From the NCBI RefSeq assembly GCF_046105845.1, contig NZ_CP151004.1: a DNA stretch of 64,000 bases, one strand, 5' to 3'. The stretch's first letter is position 1. Each line of letters starts with the position of its first letter. Shown in pieces: positions 2,529-11,703 of this stretch. Below the pieces are notes generated by a model, which was not told where the DNA came from, did not search any database, and saw nothing but the letters and a program-made list of their open reading frames with translations. The stretch is from Escherichia coli. GTDB lineage: Bacteria > Pseudomonadota > Gammaproteobacteria > Enterobacterales > Enterobacteriaceae. The translations under genes and the position numbers were made by a program.

Positions 2529-2687
2529 ATGACAAAACGTCGTAAGAAATACCAGGAAAAAGAAGAGATTCGACACCCTGATTCACCTGAGGGATTAGTG
2601 GTAGCCGCAGCAAATAACAGGGCGTTCGCAGAGCGCCTTGTTGGTGTTTACAGACTAGCCAAAGCAGGAGTGAAACATGGGCGTCGT
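2529..2687 (+). CDS. Small hypothetical ORF (52 aa, MTKRRKKYQEKEEIRHPDSPEG...) overlapping start of replication gene
   Basis: ATG ORF found by eye between c1 and gene 18; not in ORF track because under 60 aa. Confidence 0.3.
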
Positions 2688-3507
2688 TAAGTTAGCTGAT
2701 TACAGGCCTCAACTGGAGGTCGTGGAGCATCGCGTGGCAGAACTCGAAGATGGCTACACTCGGACTGCAAACACACTGTTAGAAGCCGCCATGCTTTCTG
2801 GGCTTACTCTACATCAGTTACTGATTGTTATGGCTGTGTGGCGCAAGACATACGGTTACAACAAAAAAATAGATTGGATCGGAAACGAACAGTTCGCTGA
2901 ACTCACTGGCATGGCACCAACCAAATGTTCTACCGCCAAAAACGAGCTTATCAGAATGGGAGTTCTCATTCAGGTGGGGCGTCAAGTTGGTATGAATACA
3001 AACATTTCCGAGTGGAAAACGAAAGTTAACGGATTCGGTAAAACATTTACCAATTCGGTAAAACAAACCTTCACCAAATCGGTAAAAAGCAATTTACCGA
3101 ATCAGTCAAACACAAAAGACAATATACAAAAGACAATAAATACAAATACCCCCTTACCCCCTAACGGGGGCGGCGATGGGCAGGTTAAACCTGAACGTCG
3201 CAAGGCAGAACGAATCGACTATGAATCCTTCCTGAACGCCTACAACACCGAAGTCGGTGACAGACTGCCACACGCTGTTGCGGTCAACGAGAAACGCAAA
3301 CGCCGCCTGAAGAAAATCATCCCGCAACTGAAAACGCCAAACGTGGACGGTTTCAGAGCGTATGTCAGGGCGTTTGTACATCAGGCCAAGCCGTTTTACT
3401 TCGGAGACAACGACACTGGCTGGACGGCAGATTTTGATTACCTGCTGAGGGAAGATTCGTTAACGGGAGTACGGGAAGGGAAGTTTGCAGACAGGGGGAT
3501 TGCATGA
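2677..3507 (+). CDS. Replication initiation protein (lambda O / P22 gene 18-like)
   Basis: 276 aa; N-terminal domain [30 protein letters not shown] matches the O-protein DNA-binding fold; followed by helicase. Confidence 0.85.
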
Positions 3508-4880
3508 GACAGGATATCGAAGCGAGCGTTATCGGTGGCCTGCTGATTGGTGGATTAACACCAACCGCCAGCGACGTTCTGGCAACGCTGGAGCCGGAAG
3601 CGTTTTCAATTCCGCTCTACCGGAAAGCCTTCGAGGTTATCCGCAAGCAGGCGAGAAACAGAAACCTAATCGACGCGCTGATGGTTGCAGAGGCGTGCGG
3701 AGAGGAGCATTTCACGTCAATCCTGATGACCAGCAAGAACTGCCCGAGTGCCGCAAACCTGAAGGGATATGCTGGAATGGTCGCGGATAACTATCACCGC
3801 CGTCTGGTGCTGGAAATCATGGACGAAATGCGTGAACCAATTCAGAGCGGAACCATCGACGCATCGAGTCAGGCGATGGACGAGCTGGTAAAGCGTCTTT
3901 CAGCCATCAGAAAGCCACGTGACGAGGTAAAACCTGTACGGTTAGGGGAAATCATCACCGACTACACTGACACGCTTGACAGGCGTCTGAGGAACGGAGA
4001 AGAGTCAGATACCCTGAAGACCGGAATCGAAGAACTTGATGCCATCACCGGAGGGATGAACGCGGAAGACCTGGTGATAATCGCTGCTCGTCCTGGTATG
4101 GGGAAAACCGAGCTGGCGCTGAAGATTGCCGAAGGCGTTGCAAGCCGCGTTATTCCTGGTTCTGACGTCCGGCGCGGGGTATTGATTTTCTCAATGGAAA
4201 TGAGCGCATTGCAGATTGCAGAGCGAAGCATTGCCAACGCCGGGAGGATGTCGGTTAGCGTACTGCGAAATCCTGCATCGATGGATGACGAAGGCTGGGC
4301 GCGTGTTGCTAACGGCATGAGTCAGCTTGCAGATTTGGATGTATGGGTAGTCGATGCCTCGCGGTTATCGGTAGAAGAAATTCGCTCAATCGCAGAGCGG
4401 CACAAACAGGAAAATCCAAACCTGTCACTCATCATGGCGGATTATCTTGGCCTGATTGAGAAGCCGAAAGCAGACCGCAACGACCTCGCAATTGCTCACA
4501 TCTCAGGAAGCCTGAAGGCGATGGCGAAAGACCTGAAAACGCCTGTTATCTCCCTAAGTCAGCTTTCGCGCGATGTTGAGAAGCGACCAAACAAACGCCC
4601 GACAAACGCAGATTTGCGTGATTCAGGAAGCATTGAGCAGGACGCAGACTCAATCATCATGCTCTATCGGGAAGCGGTATATGACGAGAACAGTAGCGCC
4701 GCGCCATTTGCTGAAATCATCGTGACGAAAAACCGTTTTGGCTCACTTGGTACGGTTTACCAGCGGTTCTGTAACGGACACTTTGTTGCATGTGACCAGG
4801 ATGAAGCCAGACAGATTTGCACAGCATCAAATGCACCTGCTGCGCGTGGCAGACGATATGCACAAGGGGCGGACGTATGA
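3504..4880 (+). CDS. Replicative DNA helicase, DnaB family (P22 gene 12-like)
   Basis: 458 aa; Walker A GMGKTE and DnaB C-terminal motifs; overlaps O-like gene stop. Confidence 0.9.
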
Positions 4881-4906
4881 CCATCTACATCACTGAGCTA
4901 ATAACA

Positions 4907-4938
4907 GGCCTGCTGGTAATCGCAGGCCTTTTTATTTG
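4907..4938 (+). terminator. Rho-independent terminator after helicase gene
   Basis: Hairpin AGGCCTGCTGGTAATCGCAGGCCT followed by TTTTATTT. Confidence 0.55.
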
Positions 4939-4953
4939 GGGGAGAGGGAAGTC

Positions 4954-5394
4954 ATGAAAAAACTAACCTTTGAAATTCGATCTCCAGCACATCAGCAAAA
5001 CGCTATTCACGCGGTACAGCAAATTCTTCCAGACCCAACCAAACCAATCGTAGTAACCATTCAGGAACGCAACCGCAGCTTAGACCAGAATCGAAAGCTT
5101 TGGGCTTGCCTTGGTGACGTCTCTCGTCAGGTTGAATGGCATGGTCGCTGGCTGGATGCAGAAAGCTGGAAGTGTGTGTTTACCGCAGCATTAAAGCAGC
5201 AGGACGTTGTTCCTAACCTTGCCGGGAATGGCTTTGTGGTAATAGGCCAGTCAACCAGCAGGATGCGTGTAGGCGAATTTGCGGAGCTATTAGAGCTTAT
5301 ACAGGCATTCGGTACAGAGCGTGGCGTTAAGTGGTCAGACGAAGCGCGACTGGCTCTGGAGTGGAAAGCAAGATGGGGAGACAGGGCGGCATGA
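4954..5394 (+). CDS. ninB: Recombination protein NinB
   Basis: 146 aa from [23 protein letters not shown]..., recalled as near-identical to lambda NinB. Confidence 0.9.
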
Positions 5395-5567
5395 GGCGAC
5401 AGCGACGAAGTATCACCGACATCATCTGCGAAAACTGCAAATACCTTCCAACGAAGCGCTCCAGAAATAAACGCAAGCCAATCCCAAAAGAATCTGACGT
5501 AAAAACCTTCAATTACACGGCTCACCTGTGGGATATCCGGTGGCTAAGACATCGTGCGAGGAAATGA
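5391..5567 (+). CDS. Small basic nin-region protein (NinE-like, 58 aa)
   Basis: ATG overlaps ninB stop (ATGA); [30 protein letters not shown]...; family assignment from memory only. Confidence 0.5.
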
Positions 5568-5648
5568 CAATGCTTTTAATTCAACTTGGATTTGGCCTTA
5601 GCATCAAAAAATGTCACATGTTTGGCGAGAAAGAGTCTCAACGAAAAA

Positions 5649-5971
5649 TGGTGCTTATCAAGTTGCCATTTATCAGTATTTGTTGGCTAAACAGGGAGGC
5701 CGCAAATTATTTGTCTACATGCGCCAGAGCAGCATTTAACGACCCTGAGTGGTTTGTAGAAAACCATCACGCTGTTCGTCAGGCAAAGAGAAAGGCCGAA
5801 ACGACATACATGAAGGCGTATCGAAAAGCATGGAAAGAACACCGCGATCGATACCAACAAGACATGGAAAAGCTTGAATCAGAAAACATGGAATTAAGAC
5901 GAAAGCTCGGTGAAGCAAAACGAGACATTGATGCTTACAAGCGACTTTTTAATGGTGAAAGCCATGCTTAG
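5649..5971 (+). CDS. Hypothetical nin-region protein, start uncertain (ORF track gives 5528)
   Basis: Open frame with coiled-coil C-terminus; true start codon not resolved. Confidence 0.35.
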
Positions 5972-6140
5972 TCCATCCCAATCTCTTCAATACCAGAAAG
6001 AAAGCGTCGAGCGGGCTTTAACGTGCGCTAACTGCGGTCAGAAGCTGCATGTGCTTGAAGTTCACGTGTGCTCCGATTGCTGCGCAGAACTGATGAGCGA
6101 TCCGAATAGCTCAATGTACGAGGAAGAAGACGATGAGTGA
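5964..6140 (+). CDS. ninF: NinF
   Basis: 58 aa MLSPSQSLQYQKESVERALTCANCGQKLHVLEVHVC..., recalled as lambda NinF. Confidence 0.8.
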   Translation: MLSPSQSLQYQKESVERALTCANCGQKLHVLEVHVCSDCCAELMSDPNSSMYEEEDDE

Positions 6141-6402
6141 TTTCGCTGAGCTTATTTCCTTCAAAAAAGACAGAGAAGAAATGCGGACTGAATCTGTCTA
6201 TTACGTTCAACACCGGAATAAACGCTCGGTGCTTGATCAGGAGTTGGTTATTACCGGAGACCTGGCATTCAGAACATATAAGGCCAGCATGGAAATGAAG
6301 GATTTCCCTAAATGTGGTTCTGAAAGAGAAGCCGCGTTAAAGCTGGCTGAGTGGATGCAGAGAATGGCTGCTGCAATTGAGAATTACTGGAGTGAACCAT
6401 AA
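6133..6402 (+). CDS. Hypothetical nin-region protein (89 aa)
   Basis: ORF overlapping ninF stop and ybcO-like start, i.e. translationally coupled. Confidence 0.55.
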   Translation: MSDFAELISFKKDREEMRTESVYYVQHRNKRSVLDQELVITGDLAFRTYKASMEMKDFPKCGSEREAALKLAEWMQRMAAAIENYWSEP

Positions 6403-6692
6403 TGGCTAACCTACGCAAAGAAGCGCGCGGCAGAGAATGCCAGGTACGTATTTACGGCATATGCAATGGCAATCCTGAAACTACAGTTCTGGCACATTAC
6501 CGGATGGCTGGAATTTGCGGAACGGGAATGAAACCTGACGACCTGATTGGCGCATGGGCTTGTAGCGCGTGTCACGATGAAATCGACCGACGCACCCATA
6601 ATCTCGACAACAAAGACGCCAGACTTTACCACCTCGAAGGTGTGATCAGGACGCAGGCGATACTGCTGAAGGAGGGGAAGATTAAGCCATGA
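6402..6692 (+). CDS. YbcO-like DUF1364 putative nuclease
   Basis: 96 aa MANLRKEARGRECQVRIYGICNGNPETTVLAH...ACSACHDEIDRR, resembles DLP12 YbcO. Confidence 0.8.
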   Translation: MANLRKEARGRECQVRIYGICNGNPETTVLAHYRMAGICGTGMKPDDLIGAWACSACHDEIDRRTHNLDNKDARLYHLEGVIRTQAILLKEGKIKP

Positions 6693-7051
6693 ACGAATAT
6701 CAGTTTGTGCTTCCTTACCCGCCGTCGGTGAACACCTACTGGCGAAGACGGGGAAGCCAATACTACATCAGCGATAAAGGCCAGAAATACCGAAAAGACG
6801 TTCAGCAAATTATCCGCCAACTCAAGTTAGACATTTTCACCAAATCACGACTCCGCATCAAAGTCATCGCAGACGTTCCAGACTCACGCCGCCGCGACCT
6901 CGATAACATCCTGAAAGGTTTACTCGACTCCCTTATCCACGCCGGATTTGCGGAAGACGACGAGCAATTCGATGACATTCGCGTAATTCGTGGTGTGAAA
7001 GTACCAGGTGGAAGGCTTGGAATAAAAATCACCGAACTGGAGAACGCATGA
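6689..7051 (+). CDS. rusA: Holliday junction resolvase RusA
   Basis: 120 aa with RusA motifs (YPPSVNTYW, DLDNILKGLLDSL). Confidence 0.9.
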   Translation: MNEYQFVLPYPPSVNTYWRRRGSQYYISDKGQKYRKDVQQIIRQLKLDIFTKSRLRIKVIADVPDSRRRDLDNILKGLLDSLIHAGFAEDDEQFDDIRVIRGVKVPGGRLGIKITELENA

Positions 7052-7236
7052 ACGCCACAATTCAAACGATACCAGAGCTTCTTATCCAGACACGAGGCAA
7101 TCAGACCGAAGTGGCAAGGATGCTTTCCTGCGCAAGAGGAACAGTGCTCAAGTACAACCGAGACAGCAAAGGCGAGCGTCATGTAATAGTTAACGGCGTC
7201 CTGATGGTCAAACAGGGCAAGAGGGGAAGACGATGA
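7048..7236 (+). CDS. ninH: NinH
   Basis: 62 aa ...GNQTEVARMLSCARGTVLKY..., resembles lambda NinH. Confidence 0.75.
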   Translation: MNATIQTIPELLIQTRGNQTEVARMLSCARGTVLKYNRDSKGERHVIVNGVLMVKQGKRGRR

Positions 7237-7856
7237 GACTCGAAAGCGTAGCTAAATTTCATTCGCCAAAAAGCCCGATGATGAGCGACTCACCACGGGC
7301 TACGGCTTCTGACTCTCTTTCCGGTACTGATGTGATGGCTGCTATGGGGATGGCACAATCACAGGCCGGATTCGGGATGGCTGCATTTTGCGGTAAGCAC
7401 GAACTCAGCCAGAACGACAAACAAAAGGCTATCAACTATCTGATGCAATTTGCACACAAGGTATCGGGGAAATACCGTGGTGTGGCAAAGCTCGAAGGAA
7501 ATACTAAGGCAAAGGTACTGCAAGTGCTCGCAATATTCGCTTATGCGGATTATTGCCGTAGTGCCGCGACGCCGGGTGCAAGATGCAGAGATTGCCACGG
7601 TACAGGCCGTGCGGTTGATATAGCCAAAACGGAGCAGTGGGGGAGAGTTGTTGAGAAAGAGTGCGGAAGATGCAAAGGTGTCGGCTATTCAAGAATGCCA
7701 GCAAGCGCCGCATATCGCGCTGTAACGATGCTAATCCCAAACCTTACCCAACCCACCTGGTCACGCACTGTTAAGCCGCTGTATGACGCTCTGGTGGTGC
7801 AATGCCACAAAGAAGAGTCAATCGCAGACAATATTTTGAATGCGGTCACACGTTAG
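7233..7856 (+). CDS. Q: Late-gene antiterminator Q (lambda-type)
   Basis: 207 aa, MRLESVAKFHSPKSPMMSDSPRATASD..., recalled as essentially lambda Q. Confidence 0.95.
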   Translation: MRLESVAKFHSPKSPMMSDSPRATASDSLSGTDVMAAMGMAQSQAGFGMAAFCGKHELSQNDKQKAINYLMQFAHKVSGKYRGVAKLEGNTKAKVLQVLAIFAYADYCRSAATPGARCRDCHGTGRAVDIAKTEQWGRVVEKECGRCKGVGYSRMPASAAYRAVTMLIPNLTQPTWSRTVKPLYDALVVQCHKEESIADNILNAVTR

Positions 7857-7898: not shown

Positions 7899-7940
7899 TT
7901 GACTTATTGAATAAAATTGGGTAAATTTGACTCAACGATG
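7899..7940 (+). promoter_or_regulatory. Late promoter pR' with qut region
   Basis: TTGACT (7899-7904), 17 nt spacer, TAAATT (7922-7927), as in lambda pR'. Confidence 0.75.
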
Positions 7941-7963
7941 GATAAATGCACTCGTTAAATAAA

Positions 7964-7992
7964 GCCCTGAGTTAATAGCTCGGGGCTTTTTG
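7964..7992 (+). terminator. Rho-independent terminator just downstream of pR' (candidate tR')
   Basis: Hairpin GCCCTGAGTTAATAGCTCGGGGC followed by TTTTT. Confidence 0.6.
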
Positions 7993-8134
7993 CGTTTTAA
8001 ACACGACCTTTCTGAAAGCACATCAAACCAAATACCAGACAGACAAAAATAATCACCTTATCCGCTGTGGCTACGGTGCGGTGTGCTTTGCATAAAAGAA
8101 AACCAGCTCAATGGCTGGCTTCGTGAAAGCGGGT

Positions 8135-9880: not shown

Positions 9881-10366
9881 ATGAATAACTTTGTTGAAAT
9901 TACCTCAAGAATTGGTCGCATGTACCAAGATTTTCTTATAAGTGGAAAGGGGTCTGGCGACATCATAGAGGAAATTGACAAGCTAAGTGCAGAGCTGAGA
10001 AGGAATGGGTGTGTTAATTCTATCTTTTTTGAAACTTTGCTAAAGCAAGGCTTCATGTTTGACATGATTAATTACAACAAAGTCGCACCCAGTGCTTCGC
10101 AAAAATCATATGTGTACGTTCTGCATGCTGAAGATAGTGGGCTAACAAAAATAGGGTTTAGTCGCAGGGTTAATAAACGAATTTCAGAGATATCTCGCAT
10201 GAGTGGTGGGAAGCTAAATCTAATTGCAAAGATTCCGGCCGATAGAGAGCTTGAAACCAAATTGCACCAAAAATATTACAACTATAGGTCGCACGGGGAG
10301 TGGTTTAGTCTCAATCGTTGTCATTTGAAAGAGCTAAAAGAAATGCCTGGTAACGAACTGAAATAA
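9881..10366 (+). CDS. T5orf172 / GIY-YIG-like domain protein (161 aa), accessory gene
   Basis: C-terminal half has YVYVL...TKIGFS...R...E...EWF pattern typical of T5orf172 (GIY-YIG superfamily); AT-rich; flanked by terminators. Confidence 0.65.
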   Translation: MNNFVEITSRIGRMYQDFLISGKGSGDIIEEIDKLSAELRRNGCVNSIFFETLLKQGFMFDMINYNKVAPSASQKSYVYVLHAEDSGLTKIGFSRRVNKRISEISRMSGGKLNLIAKIPADRELETKLHQKYYNYRSHGEWFSLNRCHLKELKEMPGNELK

Positions 10367-10542
10367 TCCCCGGACTCACTAATTAACGGCAGTACAGCGA
10401 AACGACCCAAGCCAGTAAGTGGGGAAATAACACTGGCAGCCACTGAAAGATGAACCTCCTGCCTTATGGCAAAAAAGATTCTTTGTGGCGGCGGACTGAT
10501 GGAAGGACATCCTAATTTCAGCCAAACATTGAAGGAGTTGTT

Positions 10543-10614
10543 ATGTCAGCAGAAGGTTTCAATAACCCATCAAAATTCCGGGATGAGTGGGATAGCAGCG
10601 TAAAGAGTAAGTGA
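10543..10614 (+). CDS. Possible 23-aa small peptide (MSAEGFNNPSKFRDEWDSSVKSK)
   Basis: ATG preceded by AAGGAG at optimal spacing inside a 350-bp gap; too short to assess otherwise. Confidence 0.2.
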   Translation: MSAEGFNNPSKFRDEWDSSVKSK

Positions 10615-10719
10615 TGCCATCACAAAAGCCATTCCCTACAGAGTGGCTTTGATAATGGCTTATACCCTACACGGGATAACTTAACTGATATCCCTTTTAA
10701 CGGATAAACGGAGCCAACA

Positions 10720-10962
10720 ATGGCAGAGATTATTCCCATGACTGAAGAACAGAAATTCCAGTTAGAGATTTACAAACTGGTCATGAACCAGAACGCAGCC
10801 GCAGAAGAAGCATTTCAGTTCATTGGCACTGACGAACTGAAGCTTGAGCTATTCAAAATTCACTTCCAGTCAGGCGGCGCTAATTCAGATATCACGACCC
10901 GCACTATCGAAGCGGTGCGTAAATCGAAGGAAGCGTTAGACCTGTTCACTACCGGAGCATGA
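10720..10962 (+). CDS. Hypothetical acidic protein (80 aa), accessory gene
   Basis: ATG with GGAG RBS; helical acidic product; followed by an ORF starting 2 nt after its stop. Confidence 0.55.
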   Translation: MAEIIPMTEEQKFQLEIYKLVMNQNAAAEEAFQFIGTDELKLELFKIHFQSGGANSDITTRTIEAVRKSKEALDLFTTGA

Positions 10963-10963
10963 T

Positions 10964-11143
10964 GTGAGCCGCGTAATCAATTTGGGTAAGGAGAAGAAAT
11001 TCCCAATTACTCAAGAGCTATACGAGAGGCTGGAAAGCGTCATCCATGATTACGATGGTGAAATCAGTTTATGCGAGGCGATTGGTACACTCGAATTGCT
11101 GAAGCAGTCACTGATTGAAGGCGCGAAAGAGTCCTTAACCTGA
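10964..11143 (+). CDS. Hypothetical small protein (59 aa, GTG start) coupled to upstream gene
   Basis: GTG ORF found by eye (VSRVINLGKEKKFPITQELYERLESVIHDYDG...), ends before a terminator. Confidence 0.4.
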   Translation: MSRVINLGKEKKFPITQELYERLESVIHDYDGEISLCEAIGTLELLKQSLIEGAKESLT

Positions 11144-11168
11144 AATAACGATTAAGTGAGATGAATAT

Positions 11169-11194
11169 GGCAGCACTCAACATGCTGCCTTTTA
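11169..11194. terminator. Bidirectional rho-independent terminator between convergent small-gene pairs
   Basis: Hairpin GGCAGCACTCAACATGCTGCC with T-run on plus strand and A-run upstream. Confidence 0.55.
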
Positions 11195-11206
11195 TCGTTG
11201 ATTAGT

Positions 11207-11446
11207 TTAACCGCGAGCTTCACGACCGTTTTCGTCTTCAGGCACACGGAAACGCCAGTACTTGTCTGGCTTAACCCAAACGACATCATTGCCACTATCA
11301 ACTCTAAATGCATTTATAACTTTGGTTGAAAGTACTTGGTTGCCATCTGCATTTTCTTTCAGGTGCTGCTCATTACCTGTCTTTATCAGGTAATCGACAA
11401 CATCTTGTTGATAAAGGCATCTGTCAGTTACTAATGCGGACATCAT
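11207..11446 (-). CDS. Hypothetical protein (79 aa), accessory gene
   Basis: ORF 44 bp downstream of the DUF2158 gene on the same strand. Confidence 0.45.
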   Translation of the reverse strand: MMSALVTDRCLYQQDVVDYLIKTGNEQHLKENADGNQVLSTKVINAFRVDSGNDVVWVKPDKYWRFRVPEDENGREARG

Positions 11447-11490
11447 CCACTTTGTTATATCAGCAACTTTTAAATGAGACGCGCTTGGGC

Positions 11491-11703
11491 TTATGGCTTT
11501 GGGTTTGTGTCCGTTAAAGACTCTTCAGCAAAGTGTCCTTTCTCAAGTTTTTTCCCTGCAAACCATTGGCATGTGTATGTTCCAGTAAAAGAACCTCCGT
11601 ATTCGTGGATTTCGTATACAGACATCTCAGGACCGCCTGATTTCAAATATACGGAATCGCCAATTTTAAATAACGCTTTTCTTACAGTTGAAGATTTGCT
11701 CAT
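11491..11703 (-). CDS. DUF2158 (YodC-like) small protein (70 aa)
   Basis: FKIGDSVYLKSGGPEMSV...CQWF pattern typical of YodC/DUF2158; AAGGTG RBS upstream. Confidence 0.6.
   Translation of the reverse strand: MSKSSTVRKALFKIGDSVYLKSGGPEMSVYEIHEYGGSFTGTYTCQWFAGKKLEKGHFAEESLTDTNPKP

Follow-up and report, generated by a model that had tools for sequence, protein, structure and literature searches.

Positions 4954-7236 of the window (the whole 64,000-nucleotide stretch of Escherichia coli DNA that was analysed) are very probably an ordinary delayed-early ninR block of a P22-like (lambdoid) prophage, located at tRNA-Arg(CCU) in the E. coli chromosome. We assign the block to lambdoid ninR because of the Pfam, PHROG and PDB matches of its genes, the prophage context and the shared gene order. 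Read from the sequence, it consists of a conserved backbone (ninB/orf, ninE, ninF, the ybcO-like gene with rusA, ninH and Q) and three exchange slots that fall exactly at gene boundaries. The block is already known in kind: it is a textbook mosaic nin region whose genes all fall in catalogued families (Pfam in the case of the backbone; PHROG 1511 and 1258 for the two hypothetical genes, ORF133 and ORF89).

Features of the block and its borders:
2677-3507, + strand, O-like gene, an upstream replication gene
3504-4880, + strand, DnaB-type helicase gene, directly upstream of tR2 and ninB
4906-4937, + strand, predicted tR2-type intrinsic terminator (terminator scan)
4954-5394, + strand, ninB/orf, recombination mediator, 146 aa (PF05772, 183 bits, cut-off 23.8; phrog_72)
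5391-5567, + strand, ninE, 58 aa (PF05322, E=1.7e-43; phrog_288)
5570-5971, + strand, ORF133, conserved hypothetical protein, 133 aa (phrog_1511, E=6.9e-80, full length)
5964-6140, + strand, ninF, 58 aa (PF05810, E=1.4e-13; phrog_672)
6133-6402, + strand, ORF89, conserved hypothetical protein (phrog_1258, E=5.7e-38)
6402-6692, + strand, ybcO-like DUF1364 protein, 96 aa, predicted His-Me finger (HNH-type) nuclease (PF07102, E=2.8e-44; phrog_131)
6689-7051, + strand, rusA, putative Holliday-junction resolvase, 120 aa (PF05866, 62 bits, cut-off 22.8; phrog_34)
7048-7236, + strand, ninH, putative Fis-like HTH DNA-binding protein, 62 aa (PF06322, E=2e-24; weak HTH_8/Fis similarity)
7233-7856, + strand, Q antiterminator gene, last of the probably coupled chain (PF03589, E=9.3e-57)

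Setting, expression and backbone genes

The block lies between the replication genes, the last of which encodes the DnaB-type helicase, and the Q antiterminator gene, with every gene on the plus strand; it holds, in order, ninB/orf, ninE, ORF133, ninF, ORF89, the ybcO-like DUF1364 gene, rusA and ninH, and its matches to PF05772, PF05322, PF05810, PF06322 and PF05866 all exceed the gathering scores. N, cI, cII, O and the helicase gene form the upstream context, and Q, pR' and lysis genes the downstream context; the rest of the prophage comprises P22-type morphogenesis genes, immI with sar RNA, an integrase and the tRNA-Arg gene, and the host flank is E. coli fadIJ (99% identity). Annotated records of phages ECP1, HK97 and mEp235, and of many E. 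coli prophages, show the genes in this order too, which excludes a chance pattern; together with the family matches, this order bears out the earlier note, which had called the arrangement normal for lambdoid phages. The synteny of orf, ninD/E/F and rap/rusA has been described (PMC4118853). The exact combination of cassettes occurred as one contiguous stretch in none of the 5426 complete E. coli genomes (best coverage 91%); such an outcome is to be expected where a region is mosaic, and it leaves the identification intact. An Rfam scan at the gathering threshold gave no RNA element between 4.9 and 7.3 kb, and two antisense reading frames (5127-5525 and 6802-7182) were dismissed, since they lie opposite well-supported genes.

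A predicted tR2-type terminator, whose stem AGGCCTGC / GCAGGCCT leads into a T run, separates the helicase gene from ninB, an interval bridged only by an unannotated 26-codon reading frame. The hairpin and T run (4906-4937) are identical to those between ren and ninB in lambda, and the terminator overall is almost identical; the name tR2 is that of the lambda terminator. Between ninB and Q there are nine junctions, whose spacing varies between an overlap of 8 nt and a gap of 2 nt; they include the types ATGA, ATGCTTAG and TAATG. The genes of this chain are probably translationally coupled, because each start overlaps or abuts the preceding stop. By analogy with lambda, transcription from pR would pass the terminator only under N antitermination, and would then continue across nine closely spaced genes into Q. 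In the literature the nin region is described as delayed-early, as polar on Q and as dispensable, the last shown for lambda only (PMC10695390).

Every gene named in the earlier note is present, at or near the position assigned to it, as Pfam and PDB matches indicate; its grouping of three nuclease-type recombination genes does not hold, as only RusA comes from a biochemically established nuclease family. RusA of the window aligns with K-12 RusA (PDB 1Q8R, E=2.8e-26) without gaps over residues 1-119 at 44% identity, and keeps D70, D72, K76 and D91, of which D70, D72 and D91 are presumably the acidic catalytic residues. Judged by sequence, the rusA product is a RusA-family Holliday-junction resolvase, and it would resolve Holliday junctions. 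NinB is identical to the crystallised lambda Orf at 146 of 146 residues (PDB 1PC6), and the 14 nucleotide differences from lambda ninB are all synonymous. The block had been said to begin at 4936; the nin region is indeed there, but the true ninB start is the ATG at 4954, and 4936 is a mechanical TTG start of the reading frame. [quoted passage not shown] The YbcO-like protein combines the DUF1364 family match (PF07102, 149.5 bits, cut-off 29.9; PDB 3G27, E=3.5e-40) with zinc-binding cysteines and the conserved beta-hairpin histidine, and it is 71% identical to DLP12 YbcO, with C13, C21, H32, C54, C57 and H58 kept. The nuclease role of YbcO/DUF1364 is a bioinformatic prediction only (PMC4999995, PMC5714182), under which the protein would act as a His-Me finger nuclease.

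The small reading frames number five (NinE, ORF133, NinF, ORF89 and NinH), not the four of unknown role counted earlier; ORF133 and ORF89 are indeed hypothetical, but 5391-5567 belongs to the named family NinE (PF05322), and NinH should not have been listed among them, as the lambda protein is described as a dimeric Fis-like factor with DNA-binding and DNA-bending activity (PMC7166090). By analogy with lambda NinH, NinH of the window may act as a Fis-like DNA bender. The ninE start overlaps the ninB stop via ATGA, and the ninF start overlaps the ORF133 stop through the 8-nt ATGCTTAG. NinF carries a CxxC...CxxC zinc-ribbon-like motif. Its gene most likely starts at 5964; positions 1-58 of 58 of phrog_672 align to residues 12-69 of a longer gene call, ECP1 and MB50 carry the 177-nt call, and some PGAP records start ninF at 5931. 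From position 7223 onward, Q shares 97% DNA identity with lambda.

Exchange slots at gene boundaries

Mosaic junctions fall at 5394, 5565/5963 and 6144/6399. The slot between ninB and ninE is empty here and holds Dam or NinC elsewhere; the slot between ninE and ninF holds ORF133 (cassette borders 5565 and 5963) and elsewhere P22-type NinX or nothing; and the slot between ninF and the ybcO-like gene holds ORF89 (cassette borders 6144 and 6399) and elsewhere a Roi/KilAC antirepressor. These three exact cassette-exchange slots illustrate lambdoid mosaicism at gene boundaries. The block is otherwise of little discovery value, its practical use being a clean gene map with corrected starts.

In near-identical regions each slot carries unrelated alternatives (Dam, NinC or cytosine methyltransferases; NinX or ORF133; Roi/KilAC or ORF89), and the GC contents of the two cassettes (0.42 and 0.44) lie below those of their neighbours (0.47-0.53). 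Such a pattern would suit an accessory hotspot for swapping counter-defence or host-takeover cassettes (anti-restriction, anti-abortive-infection) that stand outside the recombination machinery; we consider it unlikely that ORF133, ORF89 and the other slot occupants are genes of this kind. Distant ORF133 homologues, in PY54 and on a metagenomic contig, directly follow a Lar-like restriction-alleviation gene (PF14354, 29.7 and 31.6 bits, cut-off 28.6) and lie two or three genes upstream of a Dam methylase; ORF89 relatives adjoin Dam, and in a P1-like phage they are surrounded by accessory genes of the ea type. However, this argument is guilt by association only, with no match to a characterised anti-defence protein, a solved structure or a PADLOC model, and no paper was found that assigns a function to NinX. 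Among the matches listed for NinX in the literature, only nickel-nitrogen (NiNx) chemistry appeared. NinX as a DUF2829/Tad2-type sponge, which would turn its position into an anti-defence slot, was rejected: NinX matches PF10765 only, and no linking paper was found. A PADLOC scan of all small nin reading frames gave noise only (LmuB, E=0.007, 12.9 bits; Cas12f, E=0.067).

The two hypothetical genes

The patterns of conservation mark ORF133 and ORF89 as genuine conserved accessory phage genes under purifying selection. Neither falls in a Pfam family, several database entries are frameshifted or truncated, and a first reading could not fix the starts, all of which would be compatible with reading frames that are open by chance in spacer DNA separating true nin genes. 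However, the PHROG matches are full-length; length and start are kept in E. coli, Salmonella, Klebsiella, Citrobacter, Yersinia, Cronobacter, Yokenella and Rahnella; most substitutions hit the third base of a codon, and pN is much lower than pS; Shine-Dalgarno motifs are properly spaced and stop/start overlaps precise; and the AF2 models are confident. A chance origin is vanishingly improbable, and we regard it as effectively refuted.

The starts, which the earlier note had called uncertain, resolve to 5570 and 6133. We place the ORF133 start at 5570, instead of the ~5649 proposed there, because residues 1-133 align to positions 1-133 of 133 of phrog_1511, the N-terminus MLLIQxGFGLS is conserved across genera, and a GAGG lies 8 nt upstream. 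The view that these two are the least-characterised genes stands: profile searches matched phrog_1511 and phrog_1258 and no Pfam family, and scans of both proteins with NCBIfam, PHROGs, PADLOC and Pfam gave only PHROG families without functional annotation and sub-threshold noise. Conservation of both genes in related nin regions was looked for and found. A literature search with their protein accessions and PHROG numbers found nothing. Both genes are easily testable, and they are found in Stx, P22-like Salmonella and N15-like phages.

ORF133 was found in 381 of the 5426 E. coli genomes and in 58 phage records; Stx phages, P22-like phages of Salmonella and PY54 of Yersinia (~41% identity) are among the phage carriers. 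The dN/dS of ORF133 against the homologue of Salmonella phage SE1 is 0.16, and its protein identity to the ECP1 copy is 90%. Pfam scans of the single sequence and of the 31-member alignment gave nothing above a family's cut-off, only sub-threshold coiled-coil noise, and sequence and profile searches gave no significant match among solved structures. The AF2 model (pLDDT 80.6, pTM 0.37; shallow alignment of 31 sequences, Enterobacterales only) predicts that residues 1-57 form a small beta/alpha N-domain, followed by a conserved basic helix with the motif FNDPxWFxxNHHAVRQAKRKA and then a ~50-residue coiled coil, with a family-wide a/d heptad at residues 78-127. ORF133 as a bZIP DNA binder was tried and rejected: in place of the basic motif N-x2-A-A-x2-[CS]-R with its fixed-spacing zipper and a significant profile match, it has N65-H-H-A-V-R-Q-A-K73, with the first heptad position 16 residues after the Asn (18 in bZIP); profile matches to C/EBP, Max and GCN4 chains are insignificant (E 0.8-4) and were judged compositional, and the bZIP Pfam family is absent among the matches listed. 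The resemblance to bZIP is one of architecture only. ORF133 as a diverged NinX was likewise discarded, with a BLASTP E of 22 against NinX of E. coli MB50 and PF10765 matched by none of the 31 family members at E<=1. Our best guess from the model, held with low confidence, is a coiled-coil dimer that may offer its basic helix and beta/alpha domain to DNA or a host protein.

ORF89 was found in 147 of the 5426 E. coli genomes and in 37 phage records, and a profile search returned 67 cluster representatives; N15 gp44 is among its distant relatives. Its Cronobacter homologue is located between ninF and ninG (pN 0.20, pS 0.77 against ORF89), and the ECP1 copy is 99% identical in protein. The family shares the motif DFPxxxSxxEAALKLAxWxxR. 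Pfam scans, single and alignment-wide, gave no match, and sequence and profile searches among solved structures gave none that was significant. The AF2 model (pLDDT 82.9; shallow alignment of 13 sequences, Enterobacterales only) predicts four beta strands and one C-terminal helix. In the comparison with PUR/Whirly-like ssDNA binders, the Pur-alpha match does not surpass those to dozens of unrelated sheet-plus-helix proteins. A HicB-like identity was dropped, as no search supported it. Our best guess for ORF133 and ORF89 alike, drawn from the models and of low confidence, is that they may be small non-enzymatic binding proteins; on this view we tentatively picture ORF89 as a single-domain binding module of four strands plus a helix. 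Both ORF133 and ORF89 start with four strands and a helix, and a common origin was considered and rejected (hhalign probability 0.7%).

Two further readings of these genes bear on their roles. The cassettes sit inside the chain between orf and ybcO-rusA and are probably linked to it in translation, and what directly follows ORF89 is the resolvase gene, in the window (ybcO-rusA) as well as in Cronobacter and in some E. coli prophages (ninG), as might be seen if one or both products were accessory subunits of the phage recombination/repair module, physically associated with Orf, the YbcO-like nuclease or RusA. However, in HK97, lambda, DLP12 and mEp235 at least one of the two cassettes is absent, yet orf and a resolvase are present; ORF89 relatives outside nin lie without a nearby resolvase (N15, the P1-like phage, contigs upstream of terminase genes); and the Pur-alpha match is unspecific, Foldseek with the ORF89 model giving nothing at E<=0.001. 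A subunit role is, in our judgement, quite improbable. It would be equally bold to propose that ORF133 (phrog_1511) is a new dimeric phage regulator or counter-defence factor and ORF89 the founder of a widespread, unrecognised family of phage binding modules, and we doubt it strongly; under that proposal ORF133 could join its small beta/alpha domain to a bZIP-like basic helix (NHHAVRQAKRKA) on the ~50-residue coiled coil and could be swapped with NinX by phages in a dedicated accessory slot.

Comparison with known nin regions

In lambda, ninR (from ninB through ninI, with P/ren on one side and Q on the other) has the same position, the same tR2 hairpin ahead and the same overlapping chain as the block of the window, with a NinB protein that is 100% identical and with ninE, most of ninF and Q at 92-97% DNA identity. 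It differs in that ninC and ninD lie between ninB and ninE, nothing lies between ninE and ninF, ninG/rap replaces ORF89, ybcO and rusA, ninH is another allele, and ninI is extra. The K-12 cryptic prophage DLP12 and phage 82 have the order ybcN, ninE, ybcO, rusA, ylcG, quuD. They resemble the block in an Orf-family gene upstream of ninE and in ybcO and rusA (YbcO 71% and RusA 44% identical, with the presumed catalytic acidic residues aligned), whereas in DLP12 the Orf homologue YbcN is divergent, NinE matches over 36 residues only (50% identity), Q is different, and ninF, ORF133, ORF89 and ninH are missing.

HK97 (and HK022) have the order ninB, Dam, ninE, ninF, roi, gp66 (DUF1364), rusA, ninH, Q, and in HK97 the common backbone of ninB, ninE, ninF, DUF1364, rusA, ninH and Q is 96-98% identical in DNA; the differences are Dam between ninB and ninE, the empty slot between ninE and ninF, and Roi instead of ORF89. 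P22 carries NinX (PF10765) between ninE and ninF, exactly the slot filled by ORF133 here, with the same flanks (left, GAGGAAATGACAATG; right, ATGCTTAG), whereas NinX itself is unrelated to ORF133. The closest single record is ECP1 (NC_049926; 94% query coverage, 97% identity); it differs by a Dam methylase between ninB and ninE and by another helicase gene upstream, and otherwise has the same order as the block described here: ninB, ninE, ORF133, ninF, ORF89, DUF1364, rusA, ninH and Q.

Gene map of the nin block

The lambdoid early-gene region between the DnaB-type helicase gene and Q (the nin block, 4954-7236, + strand) forms, through Q, a single uninterrupted + strand gene chain in our map, which draws on a mechanical ORF list, Pfam, NCBIfam and PHROG scans, and reading of the raw sequence:

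Genes from ninB through Q
4954-5394, +, ninB/orf, 146 aa, PF05772
5391-5567, +, ninE, 58 aa, PF05322
5570-5971, +, ORF133, hypothetical protein, 133 aa, phrog_1511
5964-6140, +, ninF, 58 aa, PF05810
6133-6402, +, ORF89, hypothetical protein, 89 aa, phrog_1258
6402-6692, +, ybcO-like DUF1364 gene, 96 aa, PF07102
6689-7051, +, rusA, 120 aa, PF05866
7048-7236, +, ninH, 62 aa, PF06322
7233-7856, +, Q, 207 aa, PF03589

Neighbouring genes in this chain overlap by up to 8 nt or are separated by no more than 2 nt, and these junctions match the classical description of lambda ninR as a “chain of interlinked genes”, as quoted from a paper cited in PMC10695390. Two starts proposed in the earlier note needed revision: 4936 is simply where the mechanical ORF has its first TTG, whereas ninB truly starts at 4954, and ORF133 begins not at ~5649 but at the conserved start 5570, with GAGG 8 nt upstream; an in-frame ATG at 5564 was rejected because its spacing to GAGG is too short. 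The ninF start is most likely 5964, where the PHROG 672 alignment begins and on which the ECP1 and MB50 gene calls agree; ORF133-type cassettes and those encoding NinX (a P22-type protein, PF10765) both run into ATGCTTAG at this start.

A predicted intrinsic terminator immediately upstream of ninB (4906-4937), which we take to be tR2, has a hairpin and T run identical to those between ren and ninB in lambda. A 26-codon ORF (4877-4957, +) traverses this hairpin, with ATGA overlaps joining it to the helicase stop and to the ninB start. In lambda the same ORF comes after ren, and in ECP1, whose record annotates it under the mislabel “NinB protein”, and mEp235 it comes after other helicase alleles; HK97, with a different hairpin, still has an ORF at this place (gp56). 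The 26-codon ORF could be translated as a coupling bridge, encode a small membrane peptide or exist only as a side effect of the terminator sequence. A promoter-like site (6377-6403, +; TTGAGA, 15-nt spacer, CATAAT) lies at the ORF89 3′ end, just before the ybcO-like start; it is absent from the list of our promoter scan, which demands a 16-18 nt spacer, and the equivalent site is annotated as a consensus-like promoter in the mEp235 GenBank record.

Backbone proteins and the two hypothetical genes

The earlier note's description of three nuclease-type genes is overstated, because of the three proteins only RusA belongs to an established nuclease family; the YbcO-like protein is a predicted nuclease, and NinB is not one. 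RusA aligns with K-12 RusA without gaps (44% identity) and keeps D70, D72, K76 and D91. For the YbcO-like protein, PDB 3G27 is a match (E=3.5e-40), and DLP12 YbcO shares 71% identity and every cysteine and histidine; its role as a nuclease is only predicted, from structure and bioinformatics (PMC4999995, PMC5714182). NinB is identical at 146/146 residues to crystallised lambda Orf (PDB 1PC6), the 14 nucleotide differences from lambda ninB all being synonymous, and Orf is a recombination mediator that binds ssDNA and SSB, not a nuclease (PMC4118853). In lambda, NinH forms a Fis-like homodimer with DNA-binding and DNA-bending activity (PMC7166090).

ORF133 and ORF89 are both genes, and both belong to catalogued families of unknown function. 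The profile searches suggested in the earlier note assigned them to phrog_1511 and phrog_1258, respectively, and both recur across phages and E. coli genomes, contrary to the lack of conservation that the note would have taken as a refutation. ORF133 matches its family end to end; its relatives (~95 cluster representatives, nearly all assigned to Enterobacterales: E. coli, Salmonella, Klebsiella, Citrobacter, Yersinia) conserve N-terminus and length; and the gene turns up in 381 of 5426 E. coli genomes and 58 phage records, including VT1-Sakai, H-19B, HK629/630, mEpX2, Salmonella P22-like phages and Yersinia PY54, with a dN/dS of 0.16 against phage SE1. ORF89 occurs in 147 of the 5426 genomes and in 37 phage records; a profile search of 1.84 billion cluster representatives returned 67 relatives, which share the motif DFPxxxSxxEAALKLAxWxxR, and N15 gp44 belongs to the family. 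In comparison with a Cronobacter homologue, ORF89 has pN 0.20 and pS 0.77, the latter saturated. Neither family is related to the other, nor ORF133 to NinX.

No library scanned (Pfam, NCBIfam and PADLOC, with alignment-wide Pfam) returned a function for either protein. The AF2 model of ORF133 (pLDDT 80.6) places four short strands and a helix in residues 1-57, then a short helix, then a helix spanning 67-127, at the start of which the invariant block FNDPxWFxxNHHAVRQAKRKA is located. An a/d heptad that spans residues 78-127 throughout the family suggests a coiled coil in ORF133, with dimerisation probable. Its motif N-x2-A-V-R-x-A-K looks like the basic region of a bZIP protein; we nevertheless rejected bZIP membership, as the register is two residues off, no bZIP Pfam family is among the matches listed, and profile matches to C/EBP, Max and GCN4 in the PDB have E ~1. 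The resemblance is an architectural lead only.

Distant relatives of both families are located in early accessory regions of temperate phages. PY54-type ORF133 homologues have a Lar-like restriction-alleviation gene before them (PF14354 score just over the cut-off) and a Dam methylase after, as at L016 1567-2411 (phage PY54) and L007 3639-4399; in these N15/PY54-like phages the homologue lies directly 3′ of the Lar-like gene and upstream of Dam methylase and DinI. Some ORF89 relatives have ninG downstream instead of ybcO-rusA, and others lie far from any resolvase gene. By guilt by association, these contexts would point mildly towards host takeover or counter-defence rather than a dedicated part in recombination.

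The surrounding prophage

The window holds a P22-like lambdoid prophage. Upstream of the nin block lie N, a cI-type repressor, cII, an O-type initiator and the DnaB-type helicase; Q is followed by a pR′-like promoter, a 6S-type terminator and lysis genes; and farther downstream come P22-type terminase and tailspike genes, mnt/arc/ant and sar RNA. The prophage ends with an integrase adjoining tRNA-Arg(CCU), and the chromosomal flank is E. coli fadIJ (99% identity).

Further features of the prophage
3041-3146, +, short tandem repeats (periods 24 and 14 nt) within the O-type replication gene, probably iterons of the replication origin
7899-7998, +, putative late promoter (7899-7927; TTGACT, 17-nt spacer, TAAATT) with strong 6S-RNA-type terminator (stem 7961-7989, T run), as expected downstream of Q
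9881-11703, moron-like cluster between Rz and the small terminase gene, comprising the next four entries
9881-10366, T5orf172/MUG113 (GIY-YIG-like) protein
10720-10962, DUF2560 protein
11207-11446, -, DUF6953, paired with DUF2158
11491-11703, -, DUF2158, paired with DUF6953
25370-27704, interval including the P22-type immI region and the next six entries
25370-25699, -, 109-aa coiled-coil or membrane ORF near immI
25785-26237, lipoprotein-like ORF preceding immI, lipobox-like LSGC
26254-26505, -, mnt
26533-26757, +, arc
26758-26824, -, sar RNA
26760-27704, +, ant
30204-31382, -, Acyl_transf_3 family gene between tailspike and integrase; may be an O-antigen acetyltransferase moron
31699-32892, -, integrase
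33018-33092, -, tRNA-Arg(CCU), prophage boundary

P22 carries superinfection-exclusion genes at the position held here by the lipoprotein-like and 109-aa ORFs.

Exchange slots and known nin regions

In pairwise BLAST and a multiple alignment, the mosaic junctions coincide exactly with gene boundaries, and side-by-side reading of HK97, mEp235, lambda, DLP12 and several E. coli prophages distinguishes three slots at which cassettes swap:

Cassette slots
ninB/ninE, 5394, empty here; elsewhere Dam (ECP1, HK97, APEC AN-25) or NinC and NinD (lambda)
ninE/ninF, 5565-5963, ORF133 here; NinX in E. coli MB50 with identical flanks, empty in lambda, HK97 and mEp235
ninF/ybcO, 6144-6399, ORF89 here; Roi or KilAC antirepressor in HK97 and E. 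coli 2017.17.01CC

The G+C content is 0.42 for ORF133 (5570-5971) and 0.44 for ORF89 (6133-6402), compared with 0.47-0.53 for adjoining backbone genes; such low values would fit horizontal exchange of both. Of the 5426 complete E. coli genomes, not one has the exact cassette combination as a contiguous stretch (best coverage 91%), which is ordinary mosaic variation. The closest record is phage ECP1, covering 94% of the query at 97% identity. With its coordinates corrected, the earlier observation stands; its reading of a normal lambdoid arrangement was right, and the region is already known in kind.
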